The position numbers were made by a program, and so were the translations under genes. Source: Nostoc punctiforme PCC 73102 (GTDB lineage: Bacteria > Cyanobacteriota > Cyanobacteriia > Cyanobacteriales > Nostocaceae). From it: a stretch of 32,000 nt of DNA. The notes beneath the pieces are model-generated. The model ran no database searches, had not been told where the DNA came from, and worked only from the letters and a program-made list of their open reading frames with translations. Of this stretch, positions 262-19,433 are shown in pieces (position 1 is the first letter of the stretch; every line of letters begins with the position of its first letter). The stretch lies in the NCBI RefSeq assembly GCF_000020025.1, contig NC_010628.1, positions 4,410,001 to 4,442,000 on the forward strand, written 5' to 3'.

Positions 262-2901
262 ATGCAACCTACAGATCCGAATAAATTTACTGATAAAGCC
301 TGGGAAGCAATTGTTAAATCTCAGGATATAGTCCGTGCTTATCAACAACAGCAACTAGATGTTGAACATTTAATTATTGCCCTGTTAGAAGAACCCACTA
401 GTCTAGCAATACGTATCCTGGCTCGATCTGAGGTCGATCCAATCCGCTTTCAACAGCAGCTAGAAGCCTTTATCCAACGTCAGCCCAAAGTTGGTAAAAG
501 CGATCAGCTTTATCTTAGCCGTAGTTTAGATGTTTTACTAGATAAAGCTGAGGAAGCTAGAGTCAGGATGAAAGACTCCTACATTTCCGTAGAACATATA
601 CTTTTGGCTTTTGCTGAAGACGATCGCATTGGACGAAAGATCCTCAAAAGCTTTAGTGCGGACGCAGCTAAACTAGAAGCTACTATCAAAGCCGTTCGCG
701 GTAGCCAAAAAGTAACAGATCAAAGCCCAGAATCGCGCTATGAAGCTTTACAAAAATTTGGCAGAGATTTGACAGAACAGGCAAAAGCTGGAAAACTCGA
801 CCCGGTAATTGGGCGAGATGACGAAATTCGGCGGGTAATTCAAGTATTGTCTCGTCGGAGCAAAAATAACCCCGTCTTGATTGGTGAACCTGGGGTAGGT
901 AAAACTGCGATCGCAGAAGCTTTGGCACAACGGATGGTAAACGGTGACGTTCCCGAATCTCTGAAAAACCGCCAACTGATCTCTTTAGACATCGGTAGTT
1001 TAATTGCTGGGGCAAAATTGCGAGGAGAATTTGAAGAACGTTTGAAAGCTGTCCTCAAAGAAGTTATGGACTCTAACGGGCAAATTGTCCTGTTTATCGA
1101 CGAACTACATACCGTAGTCGGTACGGGTTCCAGCCAACAAGGGGCAATGGATGCCGGAAATTTGCTCAAACCAATGCTGGCGCGGGGAGAACTGCGTTGT
1201 ATTGGTGCAACTACCCTCGACGAGTTCCGCAAACACATTGAGAAAGACGCTGCCCTAGAACGCCGCTTTCAGCAAGTATTTGTCGATCAGCCAAGTGTGG
1301 AAAATACTATTTCCATTCTGCGGGGGTTGAAAGAACGCTATGAAGTGCATCACAACGTCAAAATTTCTGATTCGGCTTTGGTAGCAGCAGCAACCCTGTC
1401 AGCACGTTATATTAGCGATCGCTTCTTACCAGATAAAGCAATAGATTTGGTGGATGAAGCCGCAGCACAGTTGAAAATGGAGATTACCTCCAAACCAGCA
1501 GAATTGGAAACCATCGATCGCCGCCTCATGCAGTTAGAAATGGAAAAGCTGTCATTAGCTGGCGAAGAAAAGGGTACTCCCCAAACAAAAGAGCGTTTGG
1601 AGCGCATTGAGCAAGAAATCGCCAATTTAACTGAAAAACAGCAAATATTTAATGAGCAATGGCAAGGTGAAAAGCAGATATTGGAGGCGATAAGCGCCTT
1701 AAAGAAAGAAGAAGATGCGCTGCGAGTGCAAATTGAACAGGCGGAACGCGCTTATGACCTAAATAAAGCTGCCCAACTGAAATATGGCAAATTGGAAGGA
1801 GTACAGCACGAGCGCGAAGCTAAAGAAGCCAGCCTTTTAGAAATTCAAAACCAAGGTTCCACGTTGCTGCGAGAACAAGTCACTGAAGCTGATATTGCGG
1901 AAATCGTCGCCAAATGGACAGGAATTCCCGTTAATCGCCTGTTGGAATCGGAACGGCAAAAATTACTGCAACTAGAAAGTCATTTGCATCAACGAGTCAT
2001 TGGGCAAGAAGAGGCTGTAGAAGCGGTAGCAGCAGCCATTCGCCGCGCCCGTGCGGGGATGAAAGACCCCTCCCGTCCCATTGGTTCATTTTTGTTCATG
2101 GGCCCCACAGGTGTGGGCAAAACCGAACTCGCCCGTGCTTTAGCTCAGTTTCTCTTTGATTCTGATGATGCCTTGGTGCGCTTAGATATGTCTGAGTATA
2201 TGGAAAAACACTCAGTTTCTCGGTTAGTGGGAGCGCCTCCAGGATACGTAGGCTATGAAGAAGGCGGTCAACTTTCCGAGGCGGTTCGCCGCCGTCCCTA
2301 CTCAGTGGTGCTGCTGGATGAAGTGGAAAAAGCGCACCCCGATGTGTTCAATATTTTGTTGCAGGTGTTAGATGATGGGAGAATTACTGACTCTCAGGGG
2401 AGAACGGTAGATTTTCGTAACAGCGTTATTGTAATGACCAGTAACATAGGTAGCGAACACATTTTAGATGTGTCTGGTGATTCTCAGTATGAAACGATGC
2501 GGAAGCGGGTAATGGAAGGTTTGCGATCGCATTTCCGCCCAGAATTTCTCAACCGCGTTGATGATATTATTCTCTTCCATACCCTAAATCGCACGGAAAT
2601 GCGGCAAATCATCCGTATTCAACTCAAGCGAGTAGAAAATCTCCTACGAGAGCAAAAAATCTTCTTTGAGATATCCCAAGCAGCCTGCGATCACCTTGTC
2701 GAATCAGGCTATGACCCAGTTTATGGTGCGCGTCCACTCAAACGCGCAATTCAGCGAGAAGTAGAAAACCCCCTCGCCACCAAGTTATTGGAAAATACTT
2801 TTATCTCTGGAGACACGATTCTCATTGACAAAAATGAAAATGGTCTGTCTTTTAGTAAAAAAGTGCTGGTGAAGGTGTCAGTACCACAGATTGCTACATA
2901 G
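262..2901 (+). CDS. clpB: ATP-dependent chaperone ClpB (class I AAA+ disaggregase)
   Basis: 879-aa ORF with an ATG start. Two AAA+ modules carry Walker A GEPGVGKT and GPTGVGKT. A long coiled-coil middle domain lies between them, and there is an N-terminal Clp repeat domain. Confidence 0.97.
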
Positions 2902-2971: not shown

Positions 2972-3301
2972 TTAAAACTGAGGCTTAACATACAAATCCC
3001 ATAATTCTTTTAAGCGCTTTGCATCTGATTCAGAAACTTGCCCGATCTTAGCTAGCAACAAAGATTGTTCTAGACAATCCAATCGAGATAGACGCACAGT
3101 TGAAGCAACACGCAAACCACTTGCAACCCAATCATTCAAAGATACATCAGTTTGTGTACGGGGTTTAGCAGATGTGACTACTGCGGCTACTAGATCATTT
3201 CCATCTAACCACAACACAAGTATTGGACGTTTTTTAGAACCTTCACCGCTAGTAAATGGAATATCTGCTACCCAAAATTCACCGGCTTGGATAGTCGTCA
3301 T
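2972..3301 (-). CDS. Type II toxin, MazF/PemK family endoribonuclease
   Basis: 109 aa. The N-terminus GEFWVADIPFTSGEGSKKRPILVL matches the PemK/MazF signature (G-x-I/F-W-x-x-D, then K-x-RP-x-hydrophobic run). It overlaps the upstream small ORF by 23 nt. Confidence 0.85.
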   Translation of the reverse strand: MTTIQAGEFWVADIPFTSGEGSKKRPILVLWLDGNDLVAAVVTSAKPRTQTDVSLNDWVASGLRVASTVRLSRLDCLEQSLLLAKIGQVSESDAKRLKELWDLYVKPQF

Positions 3302-3500
3302 AAAGTCCTTCGTCTTGTGGTGCGTAGCCGTTCAAAAAAGCATTATGGCTGCGGGTGCTTTCGGTTTCTTTTGCTTTTTGTTGGATGGTAATTACCCAGT
3401 GCCCTGTAGTTATATTTTCCAGTATTGATTCTGGGAGATTCAATTTTTCCCCTGGTTTTAGTTCAATTTCATAAGTTAGAGTAGTCAATTCATTTTGCAT
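3279..3500 (-). CDS. Cognate antitoxin (probably AbrB/MazE-like)
   Basis: 73-aa ORF immediately upstream of the toxin and overlapping it. The acidic C-terminal tail (APQDEGLYDDY) is typical of cyanobacterial antitoxins. The fold assignment is not verified. Confidence 0.6.
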   Translation of the reverse strand: MQNELTTLTYEIELKPGEKLNLPESILENITTGHWVITIQQKAKETESTRSHNAFLNGYAPQDEGLYDDYPSR

Positions 3501-3660: not shown

Positions 3661-5268
3661 TCAGCCCCTAAATTCAATTATTCTCAAGAAACTTATCGCA
3701 ATTTGAACTAATTTTTGAAATCCCAATTTTTGCAACAAACTAGTGATAATTTGTTTATTTTGAATATTAAATATATTTTTCACAAAATCTGGATTGATTT
3801 CAATAGCCTTGTTAATACTTTTATTTCCTTCTTTCCAGCGACCTAATTTAATTAATGCAGCCCCCTTATAATACCAAGCATAGTGGTAATCAGGTTTAAT
3901 TTTTAGTGCTTGGTCGTAAGATGCGATCGCCTCTTCATTGCGTCCTAAATTAGATAGTGCATGGCCCCGATTGTACCAAGCTTGGTGATAATCTGGTTTA
4001 ATTTTCAGTGCTTCGTTAAAAGCGGTAAGTGCTTCTTCATCACATCCTAATTGCCCTAGTGCAAAGCCTTTACCATGCCAGGCTTCGTGTTTATCAGGTT
4101 GAATTGTTACTGTTCTAACGTAGGATGCGAGCGCTTCTTCGTACCGTTCTAATTTTCCAAGTGTATTACCTTGATTGTGCCAAGCCTCCTGATAGTCTGG
4201 TTTAATTTGTACCGCCTCATTATAGGATGCAAGCGCTTCTTCATAGCGTTCTAAATCCCATAGCGTAATTCCCCGATTGTACCAAGCTTGGGGATCATCT
4301 GGTTTAATTTGTACCGCCTCATTATAAGATGCGAGCGCTTCTTCATAGCGTCTTAGATTCCACAATTCAATTCCCTTGTTATTCAAAACTATGTAATCAT
4401 CAGGTTGAAATTTCAGTGCTTGCTCAAAGGAGGCAAGTGCTTCTTCATAACGTCCTAAATTGCGTAATGCCTTACCCTGATTATTCCAAGCCTGGTAGTA
4501 ATCAGGTTGAAATTTCAGTGCTTGGTTGTAAGATGTTATCGCTGCTTCGTATTCCTTAGCAGCGTCTAGTAAATTCCCCTGTTCAACTAGTAAACCTGCC
4601 TTCCGACTCTCTGGCTGATCTTTTTCTGTCAACAAGTCTTGAATTTCTATAACTTTCTCAATTTTTTGTTCAGAGCTGAGTTTCAAATATTCCTCATAGT
4701 CTCCTTCCAACAGCAGGCGAGTTGATTCTTGTTCTACCACCTCTGGCGCTGTAGGTAATTCAAATACTCCAGAACGCCAATCAAAAAAATCTGGGGCGCG
4801 ATGAATAAAATAGTTTATCGAAAAAGAACGTAAAAGAAAAACAAAGCTAATTGGAAAGTCATCTCTAAAGCGTTCTCGCTGTTGGTTTAAGTGATTTAAA
4901 ATATGCGGAACACTGATTAAATTGCTAAATTGTCCTTCTGTAATTTCCCCAAAACTTCTTTTTTCATACTTATATAAAGAATATTCCAGACCTTTAATCA
5001 ATAAAATATCAACTTGCTTGTCTTTAACAGACTCTGCGACTGGCTGATATAAATTATCAATTGCCTCAACAAAGCGCAAAACTGCAATCTTCTTCTGCGG
5101 AATCTCCTGCGGAAGTTTGATAATTAAATTGTCTGCTTCTACAGGTGTACATTGGACGAAAAACAAACCAAATCCTGATTTTCGCCTCAGTGCGCGAAGC
5201 AAGTCTTGATAAGCTTCTTCTGGTTCTGGGGGTAAATCATCATCCCAATCGCTTAAATTTGGGTTCAT
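3661..5268 (-). CDS. TPR-repeat protein with an unassigned ~230-aa N-terminal domain
   Basis: 535 aa. The C-terminal ~300 aa are tandem 34-aa TPR units with the recurring motif YEEALASY..A...KPD...AW.N.G. Two neighbouring units are near-identical at DNA level (4197 vs 4299, 102-nt offset). The ATG overlaps the upstream stop (ATGA at 5265-5268). Confidence 0.85.
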   Translation of the reverse strand: MNPNLSDWDDDLPPEPEEAYQDLLRALRRKSGFGLFFVQCTPVEADNLIIKLPQEIPQKKIAVLRFVEAIDNLYQPVAESVKDKQVDILLIKGLEYSLYKYEKRSFGEITEGQFSNLISVPHILNHLNQQRERFRDDFPISFVFLLRSFSINYFIHRAPDFFDWRSGVFELPTAPEVVEQESTRLLLEGDYEEYLKLSSEQKIEKVIEIQDLLTEKDQPESRKAGLLVEQGNLLDAAKEYEAAITSYNQALKFQPDYYQAWNNQGKALRNLGRYEEALASFEQALKFQPDDYIVLNNKGIELWNLRRYEEALASYNEAVQIKPDDPQAWYNRGITLWDLERYEEALASYNEAVQIKPDYQEAWHNQGNTLGKLERYEEALASYVRTVTIQPDKHEAWHGKGFALGQLGCDEEALTAFNEALKIKPDYHQAWYNRGHALSNLGRNEEAIASYDQALKIKPDYHYAWYYKGAALIKLGRWKEGNKSINKAIEINPDFVKNIFNIQNKQIITSLLQKLGFQKLVQIAISFLRIIEFRG

Positions 5269-6590
5269 GAAAGTTTCGCTACGGCTTCTTTAAATTCTGG
5301 AATTCCTTGAATCAATGGATGAATATCATACCAACGCTGCATTTCTCCATCATCATCCAAATAACGGTATTCTAAAAGACAGCGATTATACATTAAACTC
5401 CGATACAAGTCATCATTAATAATGCGCTTAGAACAAGAGACTTCCGCTAACAGACACCATTGATGATTTTCCACAGCGCGGCGATAAGTATCTCTAGCTT
5501 GAGTAATTGCTCGTCGCACCGCCTTTTCTGAAACAGGTAAGTCTTCAGAACGTCCAATGGCATCTTGAGTTAACAATAGCAAATTCCTCACATGACCTCC
5601 ACTCATCAAACAAAGTCTGTCTAAGGTTTGGGGACTGTCAAAAATTTCCGTTTCTAGTGATAGTTCTGGTGCAATTTGCCGGACTCGTTTCTTAATTACT
5701 TCCTTAACTTTTTCGAGTCCTGGCTGATAAACGTTTCCCTCGAAAGTTTTTACCATAATCATCGGCAAAATTTGGGGATCGCCGTAAATATCTCTAAGGT
5801 CTGTTGCCCTGGTAGAATAGACCATTGAAATGGGGACAGTATAAATCAAATGGCAATCTAAAGCTTGGAGTTGTTCGCTACGGTCTAAAAAGACTTCTTC
5901 ATAGTTGGTGCGTTCTGCGTCTTTAACTAACACCATCCGGTCTAAGTTATCGACAATTACCGCCAGTTTCTTGTAGCCATTAGGTAAGTGCTGTTTTGCA
6001 TCCACCAGGAATTCATTTAAAACCTGAATTAAAGTGACAGTGTAAGGATCAATTTTTTGGCGAATCTTCTGGCGTAATTCAGGAACAGCCCTTAAATTTG
6101 CGGTCAACTTGGCGAATTGAGTTAGCTGGGCTTCTACTCCCAGACTTTCAAATTCTATGGGAGTCTGCGCCAAATCTTTCAAATCTTCCCAACGACCTTT
6201 CAACCAGTCGAGTATAGGACGAGGACTAGCAATTCCTTTTAAATCTTTGAGCAAACGGCGGGTACAGGCGAGGAGTATATCTGTATATTGGGCATCTTCA
6301 GAATCGATATCCTCTTCATCAGCCGCAAAATACACAACATAAAATTCCCGGTTTTCTAAATATTTCTTTAACCTGAGTAATTCTGTAGACTTCCCCGCAC
6401 CCCGATGACCGGAATACAATTGACAAGTATTTGTATCTGCTAATCGCATCCGATTTCCCAACTCTTGTTCAATATCCGCATCTCCGCGCACATCCTGACA
6501 ATCTACATATTTTGGATCGCCTGCGGGTAAGGGTTCAAAGGGGTTAAAAGCATTGTAGAGTTTTGCGAGTAAGCCAGAACTATTAACCAT
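5265..6590 (-). CDS. P-loop NTPase (STAND/ORC-Cdc6-like ATPase)
   Basis: Walker A is GHRGAGKST and the Walker B-like motif is KLAVIVDNLD. The C-terminal half is helical. The ORF-track start at 6608 is TTG, and the first ATG is at 6590 (MVNSSG...). Confidence 0.8.
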   Translation of the reverse strand: MVNSSGLLAKLYNAFNPFEPLPAGDPKYVDCQDVRGDADIEQELGNRMRLADTNTCQLYSGHRGAGKSTELLRLKKYLENREFYVVYFAADEEDIDSEDAQYTDILLACTRRLLKDLKGIASPRPILDWLKGRWEDLKDLAQTPIEFESLGVEAQLTQFAKLTANLRAVPELRQKIRQKIDPYTVTLIQVLNEFLVDAKQHLPNGYKKLAVIVDNLDRMVLVKDAERTNYEEVFLDRSEQLQALDCHLIYTVPISMVYSTRATDLRDIYGDPQILPMIMVKTFEGNVYQPGLEKVKEVIKKRVRQIAPELSLETEIFDSPQTLDRLCLMSGGHVRNLLLLTQDAIGRSEDLPVSEKAVRRAITQARDTYRRAVENHQWCLLAEVSCSKRIINDDLYRSLMYNRCLLEYRYLDDDGEMQRWYDIHPLIQGIPEFKEAVAKLS

Positions 6591-6764
6591 AGGTAAAAAA
6601 TATAGCAATGTTGTTCATAATAAGGGAGATTATAGAAAGTTGAGTGTCTGGCAAAAGAAGAAATTACAGGACTTACGCATTTAAAATTTGAAGCTCTGAA
6701 ATAGTTTACTCACCTGGGTTTTCGCGTCAGTTTTACCCCACCCTAACCCTCCCCGTATGTATTG

Positions 6765-6889
6765 GCTACGGTGTACACACAAGTTTGCCAAGGGGGAGAA
6801 CCGGATATTTCCCCCCTTGCCAAGGGGGGATTAAGGGGGGTAAATCCAGGGTTTGGGCTTTATTGCCAAGATAGTGTGTACACCGTAGC
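6765..6889. mobile_element. MITE-like element with perfect 16-bp terminal inverted repeats
   Basis: GCTACGGTGTACACAC (6765-6780) and GTGTGTACACCGTAGC (6874-6889). It contains an internal duplicated TTGCCAAGGGGG. It is nested inside a second imperfect inverted-repeat pair, AGGACTTACGCATTTAAAAT (about 6668) and ATTTTATGCGTAAATCCT (about 6906). Confidence 0.55.
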
Positions 6890-7064
6890 TAAAAAAGGGG
6901 GGTATATTTTATGCGTAAATCCTAAATCATTAAAAAGTAAAATATATCACTAATATGTTCAATTCATCGGCTCAGTGTGCTGTTATTTTCACTAGTTTTA
7001 CGGGAATCCTGTAGTTGTATACCCACCAAATTAGTCAGTCCATCAGGTTAGGTAAGCATTGTTT

Positions 7065-7941: not shown

Positions 7942-9930
7942 ATGCTAGAACAAGGCACTATCAGTATTCATACTGAGAATATTTTCCCGATCATTAAGAA
8001 GTCTCTTTACTCAGATCACCAAATCTTTTTGCGGGAACTGGTATCCAATGCTGTAGACGCTATCCAAAAGCTGAAAATGGTATCCCGCGCCGGAGATTAC
8101 GCTGGAGACATCGGCGAACCGGAAATTGAAATTGCCATTGACAAAGATAAGAAAACTCTCTCCATATCCGATAACGGTATCGGGATGACCGCAGATGAAG
8201 TTAAGAAATATATCAATCAGGTTGCCTTCTCTAGTGCTGAAGAATTTATTCATAAATACGAAGGCAAATCAGATCAACCCATAATTGGCCACTTCGGTCT
8301 TGGTTTCTACTCTTCCTTCATGGTGGCGCAAAAGGTAGAAATTGATACCCTCTCCTACCAAGAAGGGGCGCAGGCGGTTCACTGGACTTGCGATGGTTCC
8401 CCAGCTTTTACCTTAGAAGATTCGTCCCGCACAACTCGCGGCACTACTATTACCCTCAGTCTGCAAGGCGAAGAGGAGGAATTTCTAGAATCTGCACGGA
8501 TTAAGAATCTTGTCAAGACCTACTGCGATTTCTTGCCAGTACCAATAAAACTAGAGGGTGAAGTATTAAATAAGCAAAAAGCACCGTGGCGAGAGTCTCC
8601 AAGTAATCTGACTCAAGAAGATTATTTAGAGTTTTACCGTTACCTGTATCCTTTTCAGGAAGAACCTTTGTTGTGGGTACATTTAAATACTGACTATCCT
8701 TTTATCATCAACGGGATTCTGTATTTTCCCAAAATGAGGCCGGATGTAGATGTTACCAAAGGGCAAATCAAGCTATTTTGTAATCAAGTTTTTGTCAGCG
8801 ACAACTGCGAAGAAATTATCCCGCAATTTCTGATGCCGATGCGGGGTGTGATTGATAGCACCGATATTCCGCTAAACGTATCGCGGAGTGCCTTGCAAGG
8901 CGATCGCACCGTGAAGCGAATTGGTGACTACATTGCTAAAAAAGTAGGCGATCGCCTCAAAGAACTTTTCCGCGATAATCGCGAACAATACATCAGTGCT
9001 TGGAAAGATCTCGGAACCTTTGTAAAATTCGGCGTTCTCAACGACGATAAATTCAAAAAACAAATTGAAGACATCATCGTCTTCCGCACCACCGCCAAGC
9101 TGACAGAAAAAGTTGCTGCTGAAACTCCAGTGGTTGAAGTCCAGTCTTCAGACGGCGATGCTTGGCAAGATGTGACTCCTTCACCCAGTGCTGAGAACTC
9201 AACCCCCAGCGCTCCCTATACTACGCTGAAAGAATATCTAGAACGCAACAAAGAACGCAACGAAAACCGGGTTTTCTACAGTACTGATGAAGCAACCCAA
9301 TCTACATACATAGAACTGCACAAAAATCAAGGATTGGAAGTCCTATTTATGGACTCCTTCATTGATACTCACTTTATCAACTTCCTAGAGCGGGAATATC
9401 AGGATGTCAAGTTTACGCGGGTAGACTCAGATTTAGACAATACTCTGCTGGAACAAGATAAAGATAAGGAAATTGTCGATCCTAAGACGAACAAAACCCG
9501 CAGTGAGACGATTAAAGAGTTATTTGAGAAATCTCTCAACAAACCCAAACTCAACATCCGTACCGAAGCGTTGAAGTCAGACGATCCTCAAGGTACACCA
9601 CCTGCGATGGTGCTTTTACCAGAGATTCTTCGCCGCCTGCGAGAAATGAATGCCATGATGCAGCAGGGAACAGCAGAGTTTCCTGAAGATCACATTTTGC
9701 TCGTGAATACTGCTCACCCGCTTATTCAAAATCTGGCAAATCTGAACCAAGGTACTATTATTCAAGGTGACGGTCAATCATCTACAGATCAGTTAGTGAA
9801 CTTAATTTGTCAACACGTTTATGATTTAGCGCTGATGTCTCAAAAAGGATTTGACGCTGAAGGAATGAAATCTTTCGTCGAGCGATCGAATGAGGTACTC
9901 ACCAAACTGACTGAACAAGCTAGTAAATAG
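7942..9930 (+). CDS. htpG: Molecular chaperone HtpG (Hsp90)
   Basis: 662 aa. It has the GHKL ATPase N-terminus (LRELVSNAVDA, DNGIGM, GHFGLGFYS) and the Hsp90 middle and C-terminal domains. Confidence 0.97.
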   Translation: MLEQGTISIHTENIFPIIKKSLYSDHQIFLRELVSNAVDAIQKLKMVSRAGDYAGDIGEPEIEIAIDKDKKTLSISDNGIGMTADEVKKYINQVAFSSAEEFIHKYEGKSDQPIIGHFGLGFYSSFMVAQKVEIDTLSYQEGAQAVHWTCDGSPAFTLEDSSRTTRGTTITLSLQGEEEEFLESARIKNLVKTYCDFLPVPIKLEGEVLNKQKAPWRESPSNLTQEDYLEFYRYLYPFQEEPLLWVHLNTDYPFIINGILYFPKMRPDVDVTKGQIKLFCNQVFVSDNCEEIIPQFLMPMRGVIDSTDIPLNVSRSALQGDRTVKRIGDYIAKKVGDRLKELFRDNREQYISAWKDLGTFVKFGVLNDDKFKKQIEDIIVFRTTAKLTEKVAAETPVVEVQSSDGDAWQDVTPSPSAENSTPSAPYTTLKEYLERNKERNENRVFYSTDEATQSTYIELHKNQGLEVLFMDSFIDTHFINFLEREYQDVKFTRVDSDLDNTLLEQDKDKEIVDPKTNKTRSETIKELFEKSLNKPKLNIRTEALKSDDPQGTPPAMVLLPEILRRLREMNAMMQQGTAEFPEDHILLVNTAHPLIQNLANLNQGTIIQGDGQSSTDQLVNLICQHVYDLALMSQKGFDAEGMKSFVERSNEVLTKLTEQASK

Positions 9931-10340: not shown

Positions 10341-11520
10341 AAAAGTGTTGAATGTTAAGAAAAATCCGATAAAAACAGCCCAAAATATGTTAAATTTTGG
10401 GCGGAAGATTAAAGTATATCTATTTAATAGTGATTATAAATTCATTTCCCAAGATTGTCAAAGATATCTTGAGAGGACTGCCAAAAAACGATTATCCAGT
10501 ATTGAACAGTCGTCTGTTCTTTGAGTGCTGGTTATCTTATGCTATGGATAACAGCTTAACAAGTATGCGAGATTTATTTAACAGATTAAACAACACAGGA
10601 TTTCCGGTAGATATTTCTACTTTCTCTAAAGCAAACTTACATCGAAGTCAAAAACCTTTTCAAGAAATTTACCAAAAATTAAATGAATTAGTACAGAAGA
10701 AAGTTCAAAAAAAGTTACATGATAAATATGCAATTTGTCCAATAGATTCAACAATTATTACTCTCACAAGTAAATTGTTATGGGTACTAGGACACCATCA
10801 AGTAAAACTTTTCAGTTCTCTAAATTTAGCTACTGGAAGTCCATCAGATAACTTCATAAACTTTGGACATGACCATGACTATAAATTTGGTTGTAAAATG
10901 ATGTCTAGTCTACCAAATAATGCTGTTGGTGTAATGGATAGAGGTTTTGCTGGATTAAAATTTATCCAAGAATTAGTCCAAGAAAACAAATACTTTGTTT
11001 TGCGGGTAAAAAACAATTGGAAGTTAGAATTTGAGGAGCAAACTGGATTAATTAAAGTTGGTGCATCTAATGATGCTCAAGCCTATAGAGTGATTAATTT
11101 TTGTGATTTAGAAACGAAAACTGAGTTTCGATTAGTAACCAATTTACCAACATTAGGAGAGGCTGCCGTTAGTGATTATGAAATCAGGGATATTTATCGA
11201 TTGCGTTGGGGAGTTGAATTGTTGTGGAAGTTTTTGAAAATGCACTTAAAACTTGACAAGTTAATTACTAAAAATGTTAATGGTATCACCATACAAATTT
11301 ACGTTACTTTAATAGCTTATCTAATTTTACAGATATTATCTGTACCACAACAATGGGGACATACGCTATTAGATAAATTCCGCTATTTACAATCTTGTAT
11401 GTGTCAGAAAATAAGTTATGTTCATTGGTTTGAAGAGATGATGTCATGTTGACTATTTTAGGCTTTTTAGAGTTAGTGTAACTAGATATGTAAACTTTTG
11501 TATCAGCATTCAACATTTCT
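10341..11520 (+). mobile_element. IS4-family insertion sequence (~1.18 kb) with 11-13 bp target duplication
   Basis: The direct repeat GGGTTAGAAGC(AA) occurs at 10330-10342 and 11521-11533. The imperfect terminal inverted repeats are AAAAGTGTTGAATGTTAAG and the reverse complement AGAAATGTTGAATGCTGAT. There is a single transposase ORF and no HIP1 site inside. Confidence 0.85.
10397..11452 (+). CDS. IS4-family DDE transposase
   Basis: It contains DRGF and the Y-2-R-3-E-6-K signature ([15 protein letters not shown]). The start is uncertain: 10397 is TTG, a GTG lies at 10430, and there is no early ATG. Confidence 0.85.
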
Positions 11521-11747: not shown

Positions 11748-12398
11748 TTATCCCTGTTGTATTTGCTTTTGTACCCAAAGACGAAAAGCTTTGAATGTTG
11801 CATTTCTGCCTCCGGTTATACTTTGCTCAAGATATTGAGTAATCGCTTCACCTAATTTAAATTGAGGAAAATTTAGGCTTTGCTGAGACTCTACATAATG
11901 ACCATTTTGTAGAACATTAATTTGGAGCTTTCCTTTATTAAAACGCCAAAGTTCAGGTACTTTTAAAGCTTCATAAATATTAGGATGAGTGCGAGAAGTA
12001 ATGTCAACTTCTATAGCTAAATCTGGAGGGGAGTCTACTGTTAAGTCTAGACGCTTCTTCCCACGAATCTTAGATTCATTTTTTATATAGAAAGACTGGT
12101 CAGGTTCTATACCTTGAGCCATTGCTTGGTTTTTGAAAGTTGTAGAACCAAGACTGATGAACTCAGTATTTAGCTCTTGCAGAAGCGCTTTGACTAAATC
12201 GCCAATAATTTCTTTATCATATTCATGTTCTGGCAGTGGTGCCATAATCTCCAGTATTCCCCTGTCATAAGCAATTCGTGCTACACGGTGTTCGCCTAAA
12301 TCCTCTAGAATTGTTTCCAATTCCTGCCAGGTTACATCTCGCACTAACACTCTTTGTCCTGGTGGAACATGGATGCGCTTTAATTCCAACAACATCAT
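11748..12398 (-). CDS. Uma2-family (DUF820) restriction-endonuclease-fold protein
   Basis: The sequence pattern RIAYDRGILEIMAP...PE...PDLAIEV.S is typical of the abundant cyanobacterial Uma2 family. The ORF-track start at 12404 is GTG; ATG codons lie at 12398 and 12395. Confidence 0.8.
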   Translation of the reverse strand: MMLLELKRIHVPPGQRVLVRDVTWQELETILEDLGEHRVARIAYDRGILEIMAPLPEHEYDKEIIGDLVKALLQELNTEFISLGSTTFKNQAMAQGIEPDQSFYIKNESKIRGKKRLDLTVDSPPDLAIEVDITSRTHPNIYEALKVPELWRFNKGKLQINVLQNGHYVESQQSLNFPQFKLGEAITQYLEQSITGGRNATFKAFRLWVQKQIQQG

Positions 12399-12493
12399 CT
12401 CCACTCCCAGTAGCTTATATCTAAATTTAGCTTACTCTACTAATGCATTGCTCTAACTCTTCATACAAGTGTTAGCAGAGGAGCATACTTTAA

Positions 12494-13804: not shown

Positions 13805-14404
13805 ATGTCGGAAAATTTCAGTCAAGAGAAAGCTTTTGAATGCTATGACATGCACGAGAGCAAGTTCTTAACACCTTTCCAACGGAAGGCACTGCTGAAA
13901 AACCTGCAAGCTAATTTACAACCAGAATATCGTCGGCGGATTGAAATTATGTTACTTGCTGATAAAGGTAAATCTCAAAGCCAAATCTGTGAAATCTTAA
14001 GTTGTTCTCAGGAAATGGCACGATACTGGATTGGTTTAGCAGAGGCAGGTTTAGCACATAAATGGAATGAGCGACCGATAGGTAGACCAAAAACTGTTAA
14101 CGATCAATATATTGAACGCTTGAAAGAATTGGTAAGTAATAGTCCGCGTGAATATGGTTACGCATTTAGCTGCTGGACAGCACAATGGTTAAGTAAACAT
14201 TTAGCAAATGAATTTGGCATTGCAATTACCGATCGCCATGTTAATCGGCTGCTAAAAAAAATGGGACTTTCTACTAAGCGCAAAAAATCTTGTCCACAAG
14301 AAACTGATAAAAATAAAGATACTAGTATTACAATCTGCGACTTGCAATCTAACTCTGAACCTAGTTTGCATTGGTCATTTAATCTAATTCAGACCAATAA
14401 CTAA
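13805..14404 (+). CDS. Helix-turn-helix protein resembling the N-terminal DNA-binding half of IS630-type transposases, with no DDE domain
   Basis: 199 aa. The first HTH region is RRRIEIMLLADKGKSQSQICEILSCSQEMARYW and a second winged-helix-like region is CWTAQWLSKHLANEFGIAITDRHVNRLLKKMGLS. The stop lies 21 nt before the ABC gene, which has its own GGAGG. Confidence 0.7.
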   Translation: MSENFSQEKAFECYDMHESKFLTPFQRKALLKNLQANLQPEYRRRIEIMLLADKGKSQSQICEILSCSQEMARYWIGLAEAGLAHKWNERPIGRPKTVNDQYIERLKELVSNSPREYGYAFSCWTAQWLSKHLANEFGIAITDRHVNRLLKKMGLSTKRKKSCPQETDKNKDTSITICDLQSNSEPSLHWSFNLIQTNN

Positions 14405-14425: not shown

Positions 14426-17400
14426 ATGCCATCAGCGTTTTCCCAGCAATATTTAGCTGAACAAATTACCCAAGTCTTGGGTAATTCGCTGTCAAAGGAA
14501 GAACTTGATACGTGTCTTGAAGGGCTGAAGATTGTCGAACCACAAGTAGCAAAGCAGTTTTGGCAAGCAACTACAACTAACACAGGAATTTATATTGTCC
14601 TGAGTGGTAAAGTCAGGCTGCTGGATAGCTCTAATAATTTAATTACCACTCTCTTTTCTGGATCGTCATTTGGCGAGTTAACTTTATTTCCAGAAAAGGA
14701 ATTTAGTCCTTATGTGGCTAGAGCTTCGGCAAACTTAAAGCTTTGCTATATCAATCAAGAGACTTTACAAGAGGTAATTCGGACATCGCTTAGTGTCCGC
14801 GATCGCCTTTTAAGACGCGCAGAGGTCTGGGATTTGCTGCTGTTATGTTGTTACAACTCCTTAATTGGGCATAATGGCTCCGTTGAGGAGACCTTTAAAG
14901 CGCTATCTCTATTTGAGCGACACAATCTAGAAAGTGGTTCTTTGAGTGCCAATCTCACTAAAGATATCAAGCTTTGGTTGCTGTATCGGGGCGAACTGCT
15001 GGATTCTCATGGGCAAAGATTGACACCTGGAAACATCCACGTGAATCCCAAAGACGGAAGTTTGCAGGTAGCGCAATCAGCGATCGCTTACAGTTTGAGT
15101 AATGCGGATTGGCAAACAGCTCTACAACACTGGCCGCAATTAGCAGAGTTGATAGATTCCCAAGAGCCTCAAACTGTCCTGGAGAGTGAAGATTTCGGTC
15201 TGGGGACTAGGAAAAACTCTTCCCAATCCCCAATCCCCATTACCCCTTATCCCCAGAGGGGACACCACCTTCCCCAATCCCCAATTCCCAACATTGAGCC
15301 AAAACAAAAGCAAAGGAAACAACGACCGTACTTTCCTAGCCCAAAAGTAAAGGCTGGGCATTGGTTGGGACGCTTGACTAAACGGTATCCGTTTTTTGAA
15401 CAACAAAGCGCCTCTGACTGTGGAGCATCTTGCCTGGTGATGATTAGTCGCTATTGGGGTAAACGCTTTAATGTCAACCGCATCCGAGATTTAACTAACG
15501 TCAGTCGCAGTGGAGCATCAATGCGGGGTTTGACAGCCGCAGCAGAAAGTATCGGCTTTTCTACCCGTCCGGTGAAAGCTAGCTTCGATAAACTAGCCCA
15601 ACAACCCCTACCTGCGATCGCTCACTGGGAAGGTAAGCACTATGTTGTTGTCTATGAAGTCAATAAAAAACGGGTGATTATTGGCGACCCCGCCATCGGT
15701 CAACGTACCCTTACCGCTAGCGAATTTAAAGCCGGTTGGACTGGTTATGCCCTGTTATTGCAACCCACAGACTTACTCAAAGAAACCCAAGAAGCGACTA
15801 CAGCATTTTGGCAGTTTTTTGATTTAGTTAAACCTCACTCGCAAGTACTGTTAGAAGTGTTTCTCGCTTCGGTGTTGATTCAGGTGTTTGGACTAGTTAC
15901 ACCTCTATTTACCCAGCTACTGTTAGACCGAGTAATTGTACAGGGTAGTACTTTAACTTTAAATGCCGTTGGTTTAGGCTTACTAATTTTTGGTTTTTTC
16001 CGCGTTGCTCTGAATGGACTGCGGCAATATCTACTAGATCACACAGCCAATCGTCTGTCACTAACACTGCTGGTAGGTTTTATTAAGCATACCTTTCGCT
16101 TGCCCCTAGCTTTTTTTGAGTCGCGGTACGTTGGCGATATTGTCTCTCGCGTCCAAGAAAATCAAAAAATTCAGCGCTTCTTAACTGGAGAAGCACTATC
16201 TATTGGTTTGGATTTGATGACAGTATTTGTCTATCTGGCATTGATGTTTTGGTATAGCTGGCAAATGGCATTGTTCAGTTTAGCGATCGTCCCGCCTTTT
16301 GTATTCTTGGCGCTGGTCGCTACACCTTTTTTGCGCCGCATTAGCCGCGAAGTTTTTAATGCTTCAGCTAAAGAAAACAGTTATTTGATTCAATCTCTCA
16401 CGGGTATTCGCTCAGTTCGCTCAATGGCAATTGAGCAAACAGTCCGGTGGCATTGGGAAGAACTGCTGAATAATGTCATTAAAAAGACCTTTAGCGGTCA
16501 GGTAATTAGTAACCAACTACAAATTTTTAGTTCTAGTATCGAATCACTAGTTACTACAGGATTACTTTGGTTTGGTGCATGGCAGGTAATTCAAAATCAA
16601 CTGACTATTGGACAATTAATTGCCTTCAATATGTTATTAGGTAACGTAATTCGACCTTTCCAAAGACTCGTTGTCCTGTGGAATCAGTTGCAAGAGGTGA
16701 TCATTTCCACTGAGCGAATTAATGATGTTTTAGAAGCAGAGCCAGAAGAAGATTTACAATTTCAACCCCGTCAGAGTTTAAGTAGTTTGCGCGGTCATAT
16801 TGTATTTGAAAATGTGACTTTTCGTTATCATCCAGAAAGTGAGATTAACGTGTTAGAAAACCTCAGTTTTGAAATCAAACCTGAGCAAACTATAGCGGTT
16901 GTAGGGCGTAGTGGTTCTGGAAAAACAACCCTCTCCAAACTGATTTTAGGGCTATATCTGCCGACGGATGGCAAAATTTTGATTGATGGTCAAGATGTGA
17001 CTAATATTTCTCTGCGATCGCTCCGCTCCCAAATTGGCGTTGTAGACCAAGATACCTTTTTGTTTGGCGGTACGATTCAGGAGAATATCAGTATTGCTCA
17101 TCCAGAAGTTTCGCAAGAAGAAATTATTGAAGCGGCGCGGCTAGCAGGAGCAGATGAGTTTATTAAGCTAATGCCAATGGGCTACGAAACCCAAATTGGT
17201 GAAGGTGGGGGTATGTTATCCGGTGGACAACGCCAACGCCTAGCGATCGCTCGTGCTTTGTTAGGAAACCCCTGCTTCTTGATATTCGATGAAGCAACCA
17301 GTCACTTAGACGCTGAATCTGAGCGGATTATTCAGCACAACCTGACAAAAATTCTTCAAGGACGCACAAGTTTAATTATTGCTCATCGTCTCTCTACAGT

Positions 17401-17530
17401 GCGTAATGCTGACTTAATTTTGGTTTTAGATCGGGGCATTTTGGTCGAAAGCGGCACTCACGAGCAATTAATCGCTAAAAAAGGACATTATTTTTATCTC
17501 AATCAGCAACAACTAGCGCAAACAGGTTGA
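14426..17530 (+). CDS. Peptidase C39 domain-containing ABC exporter with an N-terminal cyclic-nucleotide-binding-like domain
   Basis: 1034 aa. The cNMP-like beta-roll is GSSFGELTLF...ARAS. The C39 triad context is QQSASDCGASCL, HWEGKHYVVVYEV and IGDPA. It has six-TM-type ABC membrane region, Walker A GRSGSGKTT, signature LSGGQRQR and Walker B LIFDEATSHLD. A GGAGG lies 8 nt upstream of the ATG. Confidence 0.92.
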   Translation: MPSAFSQQYLAEQITQVLGNSLSKEELDTCLEGLKIVEPQVAKQFWQATTTNTGIYIVLSGKVRLLDSSNNLITTLFSGSSFGELTLFPEKEFSPYVARASANLKLCYINQETLQEVIRTSLSVRDRLLRRAEVWDLLLLCCYNSLIGHNGSVEETFKALSLFERHNLESGSLSANLTKDIKLWLLYRGELLDSHGQRLTPGNIHVNPKDGSLQVAQSAIAYSLSNADWQTALQHWPQLAELIDSQEPQTVLESEDFGLGTRKNSSQSPIPITPYPQRGHHLPQSPIPNIEPKQKQRKQRPYFPSPKVKAGHWLGRLTKRYPFFEQQSASDCGASCLVMISRYWGKRFNVNRIRDLTNVSRSGASMRGLTAAAESIGFSTRPVKASFDKLAQQPLPAIAHWEGKHYVVVYEVNKKRVIIGDPAIGQRTLTASEFKAGWTGYALLLQPTDLLKETQEATTAFWQFFDLVKPHSQVLLEVFLASVLIQVFGLVTPLFTQLLLDRVIVQGSTLTLNAVGLGLLIFGFFRVALNGLRQYLLDHTANRLSLTLLVGFIKHTFRLPLAFFESRYVGDIVSRVQENQKIQRFLTGEALSIGLDLMTVFVYLALMFWYSWQMALFSLAIVPPFVFLALVATPFLRRISREVFNASAKENSYLIQSLTGIRSVRSMAIEQTVRWHWEELLNNVIKKTFSGQVISNQLQIFSSSIESLVTTGLLWFGAWQVIQNQLTIGQLIAFNMLLGNVIRPFQRLVVLWNQLQEVIISTERINDVLEAEPEEDLQFQPRQSLSSLRGHIVFENVTFRYHPESEINVLENLSFEIKPEQTIAVVGRSGSGKTTLSKLILGLYLPTDGKILIDGQDVTNISLRSLRSQIGVVDQDTFLFGGTIQENISIAHPEVSQEEIIEAARLAGADEFIKLMPMGYETQIGEGGGMLSGGQRQRLAIARALLGNPCFLIFDEATSHLDAESERIIQHNLTKILQGRTSLIIAHRLSTVRNADLILVLDRGILVESGTHEQLIAKKGHYFYLNQQQLAQTG
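15199..15292. repeat. STRR-type heptamer module embedded in-frame in the ABC transporter linker
   Basis: CTGGGGACTAGG ... CCCAATCCCCAATCCCCAT ... CCCCAATCCCCAATTCCCAAC. It translates as GLGTRKNSSQSPIPITPYPQRGHHLPQSPIPNIEP, between the cNMP-like region and the C39 domain. Confidence 0.6.
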
Positions 17531-17566
17531 AAGAGACTCAGAAATAGGGGATGAAGGAAATTAGAT

Positions 17567-17822
17567 ATTCGTTCATCCACCTTTGAACTGGATTCATCCA
17601 CATCAGATACTCGTTCATCCACCTTTGAACTGGATTCATCCACATCAAATACTCGTTCATCCACCTTTGAACTGGATTCATCCACATCAGATACTCGTTC
17701 ATCCACCTTTGAACCGGATTCATCCACATCAAATACTCGTTCATCCACCTTTGAACCGGATTCATCCACCTCAGATACTCGTTCATCCACCTTTGAACTG
17801 GATTCATCTACCCCAAATACTC
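17567..17822. repeat. Six tandem 42-nt units, equal to twelve 21-nt-phased TTCATCCAC boxes, between the ABC and HlyD genes
   Basis: TTCATCCAC occurs at 17572, 17593, 17614, 17635, 17656, 17677, 17698, 17719, 17740, 17761 and 17782. A degenerate TTCATCTAC is at 17803. The spacing is exactly 21 nt. Confidence 0.92.
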
Positions 17823-17885
17823 AAAATCTCCAATCCAGCCCTAATTACAAATTAGCCTGTCCCTAATCCCCAACGTCCAATTCTT

Positions 17886-19433
17886 ATGCCAAACCCATCC
17901 AATAATTCATCATCCGCCTTCGCCATCCCAAAACCAACTGAATTTCACCTGGTGGAAGACACAAATGCCATCTTTCACCCTCAAACACAAAAAACATCTG
18001 AAGCAAACGATTGGTTTTACGGCACTGAGGAACTGCTAGATGCCTTACCAAAACTCTGGACGCGCTCCATGTTGTATTTACTGGTAGGCTTTGCTGGAAT
18101 CATCTTACCTTGGGCAATGCTTTCTAAAGTTGATGAAACAGGGAGTGCTAGAGGGCGGATGGAACCTGAAGGAGCAACCCAAAAATTAGATAGTCCAGTT
18201 ACTGGTAGCATTACCGCAGTCAATGTCAAAGAAGGCTCAACTGTAAAGGCAGGACAGATTTTAGTTCAATTAGAGTCTGATGTGCTGCGAACGGATTTGC
18301 AGCAGGTGCAGACAAAACTGGAAGGTTTATTGAATCGGCGATCGCAACTGGATCTTCTGAAAAACCAAATTATCTTGACTATTAACATCCAAGAGCAACA
18401 AAATAAATCCCAAGAATTAGAAAAACTTGCTCAAGTTAGTCAGGCACAGCAAAATCTAGATGCTAAACAGAGTACCTATAACTCACAAAGACTAGAAAAA
18501 CTGGCTTTAGTACAACAAGCTAGCCAGAATATCAGTTCTACCAAAATTGCTCAAAAGTTAGCGAAGAGTCGTTTCAGCCGAGATGTCACAGAAGTTGCGC
18601 GTTATCGCCAGCTTGTGCGGCAAGGTGCAATTCCCCAAATCAAAGTTGTGGAATTAGAAAAGATTGCAGAAGAAAGTCAACGCTTACAGGAACAAGCAAA
18701 ATCTGATATCACACAAGCAAAGTTGCGCTTCAAAGAAGAACTTAACCGCTATCAGTCGTTGATGAGTCAAGCCTTTTCAGATATTCAGCAGGCAAAACTT
18801 AGTCTGCAAGAACAGCAAAGCAGCTATCGCAGTGTGGTGCAAGCAGGTAGACTAGCGGTGCTGAAAAATCAGGAACAGCTTAAAGATTTACAAGGACAAA
18901 TTACTAGCCTGCAATCAGAAATTGCTCAAACAGGAAGCCAGATTGCATCTTTACAGCTACAGATGCAGCAACGAATAGTGCGATCGCCTATTGATGGTAC
19001 AGTTTTCGAGTTGCCTATCCACAAACCAGGATCTGTAGTTGAACCAGGACAGATGATTGCCCAAATTGCGCCCAACAATACTCCTTTGATTCTCAAAGCG
19101 CAGATGCCTAGCCAACAAAGCGGTTTTTTAAAGGTAGGAATGCCAGTTAAAATCAAATTTGATGCTTATCCCTTCCAAGATTATGGGGTAGTGCAAGGAC
19201 GCGTTAGCTGGATTTCGCCTAACTCGAAAGTTCAAGCCGCTAATCAAGGTAACATCGAAACCTATGAGTTGGAAATCTCCCTACTTCAGCCCTATATCCA
19301 AACTGCCAACAAACGTATCCCTCTAACACCAGGTCAAACTGCAAGCGCAGAGGTGGTTATCCGCCAACGCCGGATTGTAGATTTTATTTTAGATCCGTTT
19401 AAGAAGTTACAACAAGGTGGTTTAGACCTATAG
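17886..19433 (+). CDS. HlyD-family periplasmic adaptor (membrane fusion protein)
   Basis: 515 aa. It has an N-terminal TM segment (LYLLVGFAGIILPWAML), a lipoyl-like motif (GSITAVNVKEGSTVKAGQILVQLES), a long Q-rich coiled coil and a C-terminal beta-barrel motif (SPIDGTVFEL). Confidence 0.9.
   Translation: MPNPSNNSSSAFAIPKPTEFHLVEDTNAIFHPQTQKTSEANDWFYGTEELLDALPKLWTRSMLYLLVGFAGIILPWAMLSKVDETGSARGRMEPEGATQKLDSPVTGSITAVNVKEGSTVKAGQILVQLESDVLRTDLQQVQTKLEGLLNRRSQLDLLKNQIILTINIQEQQNKSQELEKLAQVSQAQQNLDAKQSTYNSQRLEKLALVQQASQNISSTKIAQKLAKSRFSRDVTEVARYRQLVRQGAIPQIKVVELEKIAEESQRLQEQAKSDITQAKLRFKEELNRYQSLMSQAFSDIQQAKLSLQEQQSSYRSVVQAGRLAVLKNQEQLKDLQGQITSLQSEIAQTGSQIASLQLQMQQRIVRSPIDGTVFELPIHKPGSVVEPGQMIAQIAPNNTPLILKAQMPSQQSGFLKVGMPVKIKFDAYPFQDYGVVQGRVSWISPNSKVQAANQGNIETYELEISLLQPYIQTANKRIPLTPGQTASAEVVIRQRRIVDFILDPFKKLQQGGLDL

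Follow-up and report, generated by a model that had tools for sequence, protein, structure and literature searches.

A two-gene ATPase and adaptor-TPR pair of Nostoc punctiforme with the predicted architecture of a ligand-gated NTPase switch

Have NLR-like modules been domesticated in multicellular cyanobacteria? This question is raised by two overlapping genes in a 32,000-nucleotide stretch of Nostoc punctiforme PCC 73102 (assembly GCF_000020025.1, contig NC_010628.1, positions 4,410,001 to 4,442,000), which is hereafter called the window. Immunity in animals, plants, fungi and bacteria depends centrally on NLR-like STANDs, and in the usual picture the sensor, the switch and the effector are carried on one polypeptide. 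The first gene of the pair encodes an ATPase and the second encodes a partner with tetratricopeptide repeats (TPRs). An earlier note, which was made from the sequence alone, had read the two as a split STAND/NLR-like module in an accessory block. In the present study, the first part of this reading was partly borne out: the pair was found to be a unit of the Orc/Cdc6-STAND kind, as judged from its adjacency in all of the 80 best loci, its natural fusions, its predicted fold and its conflict-type relatives. It was also found to be more than an NTPase split from a TPR sensor, since the partner starts with an adaptor domain of its own (about 150 residues). The switch and the sensor would thus be separate proteins, joined by a dedicated adaptor that had not been catalogued before. 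A generic ligand-gated, two-subunit switch architecture is the best explanation of the pair, and we give it a slightly better than even chance of being right.

The open reading frames of the 441-residue ATPase and the 535-residue partner, the Walker A and Walker B motifs and the ATGA in which the two genes overlap were all confirmed in the sequence as they had been described (Table 1). The ATPase frame can be extended from a TTG start as far as position 6608. A sequence search returned 3967 homologues of the ATPase, and 430 clusters of the family (50% clustering) scored below 1e-30. Because thousands of homologues exist, the ATPase and its partner are real genes rather than chance reading frames. 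The ATGA overlap implies that the two are probably translationally coupled. To cover the distribution of the pair, one genome per species was scanned with two patterns, one of them the lid motif of the ATPase; 531 genomes carried a close ATPase relative, and the 80 best loci (L001-L080) were analysed. All of these were from Nostocales, except for a contig of a metagenome-assembled genome (MAG) labelled Acetobacteraceae (L016). Co-occurrence, which the earlier note had proposed as a check, was complete: the adaptor was encoded beside the ATPase in all 80 loci, and the identical four-nucleotide ATGA overlap was present in 76. Furthermore, 13 other ATPase loci were searched with a local hidden Markov model (HMM) of the adaptor. 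In 12 of them it matched the N-terminus of the gene that lies downstream (in L090, the second such gene); among these were pairs whose ATPase was just 33-38% identical to that of the window. The gene coordinates likewise overlapped by four nucleotides in the pairs of L083, L085, L087, L088 and L091, and two distant adaptors were supported by hhalign (95.8% and 95.5% probability). Three natural fusions were also found, namely P0263 (ATPase-adaptor-TPR, a single chain of 1179 residues), P0322 (ATPase-adaptor) and P0362 (adaptor-ATPase), so that both orders occur. Because of the adjacency, the ATGA overlap and the fusions, the ATPase and the adaptor are considered to act together, and the comparative evidence that they probably work together physically is strong. 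The same observations bear on the possibility that a generic AAA ATPase and a generic TPR protein have become neighbours by chance and act independently. TPR proteins are very abundant in Nostoc genomes, and both proteins are without a specific family assignment, which would suit such an origin; against the constant adjacency, the overlaps, the adaptors that follow distant ATPase paralogues and the three fusions, it is effectively excluded.

The adaptor is not tied to TPR arrays. In paralogous subfamilies, it heads WD40 proteins of 1300-1900 residues, some of which are plasmid-encoded in the company of CHAT, TIR and NB-ARC genes, and in L086 the gene that overlaps the end of an ATPase paralogue encodes an adaptor WD40 protein for which an nSTAND1 match is also on record. 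It was found as a tandem of two copies in L090 and as a stand-alone protein in L092.

Some loci showed peculiarities of their own. Six of them (L063 and L074-L078; Cylindrospermum, Nostocales MAGs, Anabaena and Sphaerospermopsis) were three-gene variants with a TPR-bearing partner upstream of the ATPase. The second, more divergent partner lay directly downstream; it was TPR-less and about 195-212 residues long in L074-L078, and had 520 residues and 7 TPRs in L063. An ATPase minority (P0102, P0241, P0401, P0416 and L049:9209-11412) carried an N-terminal extension of about 245 residues without a Pfam match. P0102 (688 residues) had been considered as an ATPase-partner fusion; this was rejected, as the extension is unrelated and occurs in 1 of the 80 loci (L049). 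In L049, the partner gene is broken after 7 codons, and a Walker A glycine of P0102 is replaced by arginine (GHRGARKST). The Acetobacteraceae label of L016 (CAZZZY010000994.1, 'uncultured Acetobacteraceae') belongs to a 2.4-kb contig on which the pair is 95% identical to the Nostoc protein, and in all likelihood arose when a lichen or symbiosis metagenome was binned wrongly.

To characterise the ATPase, 103 diverse homologues were used for the family alignment, for the AlphaFold2 (AF2) input and for a Pfam survey. The AF2 model (pLDDT 95, pTM 0.93) predicted a five-stranded AAA+ base, a helical lid (residues 289-346) and a C-terminal winged helix (residues ~355-441); strands 2 and 3 of the base are separated by a large insert (residues ~102-200) that is made up of four helices of 14-31 residues. 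A YVDxxxVRG motif was observed near the N-terminus. The best Foldseek matches were Cdc6/Orc1 structures (2qby_A at 7e-7; 1fnn), and the next were the archaeal ATPase_2 protein SSO1545, RADAR RdrA (8hr8_F), TnsC, BrxC and clamp-loader subunits. In the family alignment, G66, D214, R302 and G332 were invariant, and G61, G64, K67, T69, S330, G331 and R335 were nearly so, as were the winged-helix residues Y408, W420 and P425. The Walker B strand has the form hhhhDN..D, which we take to be STAND-like, and we read the lid motif MSGGHVRNLLLL as a candidate for a sensor-2 arginine motif like the 'GDAR' of Cdc6/Orc. No arginine was conserved in the 103-member alignment between strands 4 and 5, the usual position of an arginine finger.

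The ATPase reached no curated family threshold in Pfam, NCBIfam or PADLOC; a place in a well-characterised non-conflict family, which the earlier note had named as an outcome that would speak against it, was not found. Matches below threshold included Pfam AAA_16, ATPase_2, KAP_NTPase and NPHP3_N, PADLOC PDC-S20 and the NCBIfam Sll1717 family. For the window ATPase, the best Pfam match was AAA_16 (22.7 bits against a cut-off of 32.6 bits), while KAP_NTPase scored 13.6 bits against a cut-off of 20 bits. Across the 103 members, weak Pfam matches were obtained to AAA_16 (89), ATPase_2 (67), nSTAND_NTPase5 (48), NACHT (11) and ORC-CDC6-like (9), with a best E-value of 1e-8, and no member matched nSTAND2 (PF20702). 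With PADLOC, which had also been proposed as a check, no defence system was recognised: the window ATPase matched PDC-S20 at 4.9e-5 and no Avs/NLR model, and the partner matched generic TPR models. When the PDB was searched by sequence, using either the ATPase by itself or the profile of its family, the matches were at the level of the P-loop and no close solved relative was found; the best profile match that covered the whole nucleotide-binding domain was a KAP NTPase chain (8fnu_A, 2.4e-5). By its sequence and predicted fold, the ATPase is an active-looking member of the Orc/Cdc6-STAND assemblage, on a branch without a curated model.

The N-terminal ~225 residues of the partner contained no P-loop, as had been noticed before, and matched no Pfam or NCBIfam model even when scanned alone. 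The window adaptor carries the blocks FGLFFVQC, ILLIKGLE, LNHLNQQRERFRD (4858-4899) and HRAPDFFDWRS (4771-4803), and the blocks FGLFFVxC, ILFIxGLE, LNQQRERFRD, FVFLL and RAPDFFDWRS recur across the alignment of its homologues. The AF2 model of partner residues 1-215 (pLDDT 87.5) predicted a five-stranded alpha/beta domain without a Walker A motif, and Foldseek matched it to the AAA+ cores of Hda, Orc2, Rad17-RFC, IstB, RuvB and CbbX and to DnaA domain III. The earlier note had offered the N-terminal domain of the partner as a possible effector. The comparison across loci pointed elsewhere: the adaptor is a constant coupling module, and is for this reason a poor effector candidate.

The remainder of the partner is variable. 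In the window, Pfam TPR_1 matched at 5e-66 in 8 stretches, and a local HMM also gave eight units, so that of the '8-9' C-terminal units counted earlier eight were retained. Tandem Repeats Finder detected period-102 arrays over 4121-4460. The units at 4197 and 4299, which had been called nearly identical, were 78% identical over 102 nucleotides; the period of 102 was upheld, and the half that encodes helix B and the loop (RYEEALASYNEAVQIKPD) was almost identical. Among Nostocales whose adaptors were 72-94% identical, the partners ranged from 195 to 965 residues and from 0 to 19 TPRs, and the partner of Planktothricoides has 825 residues with highly similar repeats. The sequence entropy of each unit position was then calculated from 273 units pooled from 66 orthologues. 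It peaked at positions 3, 4, 7, 10 and 11 (helix A) and at positions 32 and 34, and the framework positions were nearly invariant. Positions 3, 4, 7, 10 and 11 of a TPR form the concave ligand-binding face. The pattern is as expected of a ligand-binding array, yet it is a general TPR property and no proof of diversifying selection; the array is presumed to be the ligand-binding part.

The C-termini of the partners also differed. At least three mutually exclusive tails were found on closely related partners, the commonest being a ...DSDFDSIREDERFQALIQ cap. A hydrophobic tail of the type ...LQKLGxQKLxQIxxxFLRIIxFR was shared by the window partner and those of roughly a dozen loci among the 80, and L026, L035 and L042 had a tail rich in lysine and isoleucine. 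In Plectonema, Aulosira and Calothrix (L059:11783-14236, L065:1829-4420 and L080:11317-13797), 5 TPRs were followed by a conserved C-terminal region of about 430 residues. This region contained two weak helix-turn-helix (HTH) motifs of the sigma-70 region-4/LuxR-like kind, with E-values from 8e-7 to 6e-4, and possibly a sigma region-2-like segment; Sigma70_r4_2 in L080 was just above the Pfam cut-off and the other HTH models were below it. The extension suggests a transcriptional output in these three lineages. It also speaks for an endogenous signalling or transcription switch of the MalT/AfsR type spread over two polypeptides, in which the TPR array would sense a cellular ligand and the assembly of the ATPase or of the partner would act on DNA or on RNA polymerase. 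The predicted winged helix of the ATPase and its top structural matches, which are DNA-binding initiators, are in line with such a role, as are the purifying selection described below, the lack of plasmid or viral copies in the collections searched and the retention of the pair in a Cylindrospermopsis raciborskii genome; genomes of this genus are small. Against this role, the HTH matches are weak and limited to 3 of the 80 loci, with none in the window partner by Pfam scan, no conserved target genes were found next to the pair in the 80 loci, and the fast change in TPR number would be atypical if the array sensed a fixed metabolite or protein. On balance, we regard an endogenous switch of this type as quite improbable.

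Collectively, these observations led us to propose that the products of the two genes form a single ATP-dependent, ligand-gated NTPase switch as its subunits, with the ATPase as the constant switch and the partner as the variable sensor. The adaptor would dock onto the ATPase much like inactive AAA+ subunits onto active ones, with Orc, clamp loaders and Hda-DnaA as precedents, and the TPR array would bind a protein or peptide ligand. The bound ligand might then alter the engagement of adaptor and ATPase and so gate the nucleotide state, the oligomerisation or both. As a leading guess, the output would be the ATPase assembly itself, possibly through the winged helix. By analogy, the pair fits the pattern of a 'constant core plus variable component' that has been reported for conflict systems of multicellular bacteria (PMC7159879).

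Several observations weigh against this proposal. On the structural side, the AF2 predictions are of single chains, with the ATPase and the adaptor modelled separately, and the Foldseek scores of the adaptor were modest (best E-value 2e-4, TM-scores ~0.4). The degenerate AAA+ core that we assign to the adaptor is a suggestion of moderate strength from the predicted structure, and the idea that it had arisen as a degenerate copy of the nucleotide-binding domain of this ATPase was rejected (hhalign, 2% probability). R131 of the adaptor was apparently conserved in two distant adaptors by hhalign; it precedes the fourth strand, a non-canonical place for an arginine finger. Neither window protein contained a recognisable effector domain in Pfam, PADLOC or NCBIfam, so the output step is a guess, and the PADLOC matches of the ATPase family (PDC-S20 and mad8) were weak. 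On the genomic side, the window's subfamily was not found on plasmids in the collection searched, where the paralogues were 33-38% identical, and no ATPase relatives were detected on the viral contigs scanned. Together with the slow evolution of the subfamily and its variable, mostly housekeeping neighbours, this is compatible with an endogenous function no less than with one in defence. No cluster member came from a model strain, and a literature search with four locus tags returned no paper.

The adaptor WD40 proteins also allow a bolder interpretation. The adaptor may be a new coupling domain at the N-terminus of NLR-like WD40 proteins, where it would hold the position in which STANDs usually carry an effector or effector-recruiting domain, and it may bring in the Orc/Cdc6-like ATPase to serve as the output. 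We consider this unlikely. If it were true, sensing would fall to the TPR or WD40 protein and the ATPase would be an executioner or licensing factor, which would, for example, assemble on DNA through the winged helix or hydrolyse ATP unchecked. This would be an effector logic unrecognised before in NLR-like systems, with one branch fixed across filamentous cyanobacteria.

Returning to the proposed ligand-gated switch, we examined what it may serve from the evolution and the surroundings of the pair. Orthologues of the ATPase were 65-70% identical as far as Microcoleus, Moorena, Planktothricoides and Xenococcaceae. The ratio of nonsynonymous to synonymous substitution (dN/dS) was determined between the window and 16 loci that keep a clpB or htpG flank. 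The ATPase gave values of 0.04-0.28 and the adaptor values of 0.06-0.20; by comparison, clpB and htpG lay at about 0.04-0.05 and the neighbouring methyltransferase gene at about 0.09. Purifying selection on both the ATPase and the adaptor was clear from these values, if somewhat more relaxed than on the chaperones. In L030, L028 and L060, the dN of the ATPase relative to the window (0.037-0.078) exceeded that of the flanking clpB and htpG (0.006-0.021) at similar synonymous divergence, which suggests a lineage-specific rate increase or allele replacement within a conserved neighbourhood.

The paralogues and distant relatives of the ATPase gave a different picture and look accessory. A conjugative plasmid of Acaryochloris carries one paralogue with CHAT, NB-ARC and TIR genes next to it, and others lie on Nostoc plasmids beside TnpB and DUF499. 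Relatives were found fused to CHAT and TRADD-N, to nSTAND1 or to AAA_21, and one relative sits among ArdA, a UvrD-type helicase and many small open reading frames. All named distant relatives were cyanobacterial; the sole named homologue from outside was on an Acidisarcina (Acidobacteriota) plasmid, with 24.6% identity. The family at large resembles machinery for surveillance or conflict, and the slowly evolving subfamily of the window could have either such a role or a domesticated regulatory one. The fusions to CHAT and TRADD-N or to nSTAND1 and the settings of the paralogues also speak for an anti-phage or anti-plasmid defence of the NLR/Avs type, in which the TPR array would sense an invader protein, the ATPase would oligomerise and the cell would be killed or arrested; the effector would be the ATPase itself, the partner tail or an unlinked gene. 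In addition to the fusions and the plasmid-borne paralogues, a defence role would fit the TPR number and the predicted ligand-face residues, which differ even between close relatives, and the decay of the partner in L040 (truncated) and L049 (disrupted). Neither PCC 7120 nor PCC 73102 was among the 80 best loci of the one-genome-per-species scan, which may point to a patchy distribution. A conserved constant component is itself compatible with conflict systems (PMC7159879). Set against this are the absence of an effector domain and of a recognised PADLOC system, the identity retained across orders with a dN/dS of about 0.1, the variable and mostly housekeeping neighbours, the lack of any plasmid or viral copy in the collections searched and the inconsistent linkage to MazF. 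A dedicated defence role is, in our view, less likely than not.

The immediate neighbours of the pair were also compared. The flanking chaperone genes clpB and htpG were confirmed in the window. They flank the pair in 14-16 of the 80 loci, all Nostoc; the flanks are lineage-specific and therefore without functional weight, and a chaperone-linked role was rejected on this count. Other recurrent neighbour families occurred in at most 30-36 of the 80 loci, and those recognised by sequence look like glutaredoxin, glutathione synthetase and a radical-SAM enzyme. The 'accessory block' of the earlier note was not supported for this subfamily, given the purifying selection, these neighbours and flanks and the lack of plasmid or viral copies in the collections searched.

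The toxin-antitoxin cassette of the MazF type, 160 nucleotides downstream of the partner on the same strand, was found as reported, and its mazF overlaps the 73-residue frame by 23 nucleotides. Among 42 assessable Nostoc-clade loci, an intact mazEF lay behind the partner on the same strand, 114-918 nucleotides downstream, in 7; remnants were present in 15 and nothing in 20, and the cassette was seen in two flank contexts. No intact cassette was found outside the Nostoc clade among the loci examined. These results indicated that mazEF is an old neighbour of the pair within Nostoc that is decaying in many lineages. Because the pair spans cyanobacterial orders and the cassette is restricted to Nostoc and often decayed, mazEF is not a general effector of the pair, and the suggestion that the neighbouring MazF might serve as its effector was not sustained.

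Table 1. Features of the gene pair and its neighbourhood; coordinates are those of the window.
Feature	Coordinates	Strand	Basis or remark
ATPase gene, constant subunit	5265..6590	-	ORF (open reading frame), 441 residues from ATG
Walker A GHRGAGKST, ATPase residues 61-69	6384..6410	-	Translation
Walker B strand KLAVIVDNLDR, ATPase residues 208-218	5937..5969	-	Translation; predicted beta-strand 208-214 in model
Lid-domain motif MSGGHVRNLLLL, ATPase residues 329-340	5571..5606	-	Start of predicted lid helix 334-346 in model
Winged-helix-like C-terminal domain of ATPase, residues ~355-441, with conserved beta-hairpin 405-423	5268..5528	-	Model secondary structure, Foldseek
ATGA stop/start overlap (ATPase TGA, partner ATG)	5265..5268	-	Sequence
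Partner gene, variable subunit	3661..5268	-	ORF, 535 residues: adaptor, helical linker, eight TPRs, C-terminal tail
Adaptor domain, partner residues ~16-172	4753..5223	-	AF2 model, alignment
TPR array, partner residues ~226-497, eight 34-residue units	3778..4593	-	Pfam TPR_1, Tandem Repeats Finder
Partner C-terminal tail NIFNIQNKQIITSLLQKLGFQKLVQIAISFLRIIEFRG	3664..3777	-	Comparison across loci
clpB	262-2901	+	ORF
htpG	7942-9930	+	ORF
PemK/MazF-like gene, 109 residues	2972-3301	-	ORF, family match
73-residue ORF upstream of mazF	3279-3500	-	ORF, without family match
Inverted repeat with 30-nucleotide arms, upstream of ATPase gene	6762-6791 / 6863-6892		Repeat search

Further observations concerned the rest of the window. 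Upstream of the ATPase gene, where repeats resembling miniature inverted-repeat transposable elements (MITEs) had been described, one inverted repeat was found, between this gene and the divergent methyltransferase gene. Its arms are 83% complementary and are separated by a 71-nucleotide spacer rich in GGGG/CCCC; it occurs once in the window and is 'MITE-like' by shape alone. At 10343-11520, the window carries an insertion of ~1.18 kb relative to the syntenic Nostoc locus L001, with a DDE_Tnp_1 (IS4-type) transposase frame at 10397-11452. The insertion sits in the 3' end of rpmB (ribosomal protein L28; 10144-10524), whose last 12 codons are replaced by about 60 read-through codons, giving 126 residues instead of 78. 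The L001 sequence that flanks the insertion overlaps by ~13 nucleotides in the alignment, which may represent a target-site duplication. Near the insertion, a Uma2-family putative endonuclease gene (11748-12404, reverse strand) and a 199-residue frame with the transposase-type domains HTH_32, HTH_33 and HTH_28 (13805-14404, forward strand) were found. Because of the insertion, the Uma2 gene and the transposase-type HTH frame, the region beyond htpG is considered to carry several mobile-element-related genes. At 14426-19433 on the forward strand, an ABC exporter of 1034 residues with N-terminal cyclic-nucleotide-binding and C39 peptidase domains is followed by an HlyD-type membrane-fusion protein; these genes look like a cyclic-nucleotide-gated peptide or bacteriocin export system that is unrelated to the pair.

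In comparison with known systems, the ATPase is most similar in structure to Orc1/Cdc6, with which it shares a predicted AAA+ base, lid and winged helix and the sensor-2-like R335. In ORC, in clamp loaders and in DnaA-Hda, an inactive or regulatory AAA+ subunit contacts the active one, and the best matches of the adaptor included Hda and Orc2. In contrast to Orc1/Cdc6, ORC-CDC6-like matches are weak and present in 9 of the 103 ATPases, a conserved box VII arginine finger is lacking, and nothing ties the pair to replication origins. In RADAR, which also consists of two genes, the constant part is an ATPase that forms rings. The pair resembles KAP/RADAR in the whole-domain profile match to 8fnu_A and the Foldseek match to RdrA; the similarity is very weak, and the pair has no adenosine deaminase partner, no PADLOC RADAR match, no score above the KAP profile cut-off and, in the predicted model, no KAP-type membrane insertion. 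EACC1 was rejected as an identity for either protein, as it is an unrelated transmembrane domain.

The STAND criteria used here are reportedly those sensu Leipe et al. 2004. The pair resembles STANDs (Avs, bNACHT, AP-ATPase, MalT) in its P-loop domain, helical lid, winged helix, hhhhDN..D Walker B and TPR/WD40 association, in the existence of the single-chain version P0263 and in relatives with N-terminal CHAT/TRADD-N. It differs in that its repeats are on a second polypeptide behind an adaptor and that its NACHT/nSTAND matches are sub-threshold. The lid may differ as well: at the place of the GxP motif of STANDs, the conserved motif of the ATPase is SGGHVRN, with glycines and an arginine and no proline. 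Unlike Avs and bNACHT, the window pair has no N-terminal effector and no Avs/NLR model match in PADLOC. MalT/LuxR regulators carry a C-terminal HTH, which the window partner lacks and which is represented weakly in the partners of L059, L065 and L080.

Two further described systems were compared. In ternary systems of the MoxR-vWA kind, which are over-represented among multicellular bacteria, the iSTAND/iSTAND2 domains are inactive NTPase-like modules that act as a constant coupling or sensing component beside a regulatory ATPase (PMC7159879, PMC8195603). The adaptor resembles them as an apparently inactive, constant coupling component by an ATPase; no recognisable MoxR or vWA partner was found in the 80 loci, and the pair has two components where those systems are ternary. 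In the nSTAND2 two-gene system, an active STAND is accompanied by an eroded one with variable modules fused to it, and the two are predicted to form a hetero-multimer (Kaur, Iyer, Burroughs & Aravind 2021, PMC8195603). The proposed working logic of the pair comes closest to this system, the layout being again that of two genes, for an active-looking NTPase and for a module without Walker A on variable domains. The likeness would require an NTPase ancestry of the adaptor, which its predicted fold suggests. The differences are that the ATPases do not match PF20702, that the adaptor has no Pfam match or detectable sequence similarity to any NTPase, and that nSTAND2 systems carry GT4 or HEPN effectors, whereas the adaptor carries TPR, HTH or WD40 modules (with the nSTAND1 record of L086).

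Neither the ATPase family nor the adaptor domain is represented by a model in Pfam, NCBIfam or PADLOC, and the pairing was not found described in the open-access literature consulted (conflict-system papers, a 2026 STAND survey and a DGR (diversity-generating retroelement) paper). Collectively, a STAND-like NTPase with a repeat sensor and the pairing of an active with an inactive NTPase are known; the family, the adaptor domain and the effector-less, conserved branch appear new. In this family, one adaptor links the ATPase to TPR arrays, to TPR and HTH proteins and to large WD40 proteins. The branch of the window is conserved like housekeeping genes while its repeat array changes, which makes it, next to the known systems, a tractable case for an effector-less NLR-like switch.

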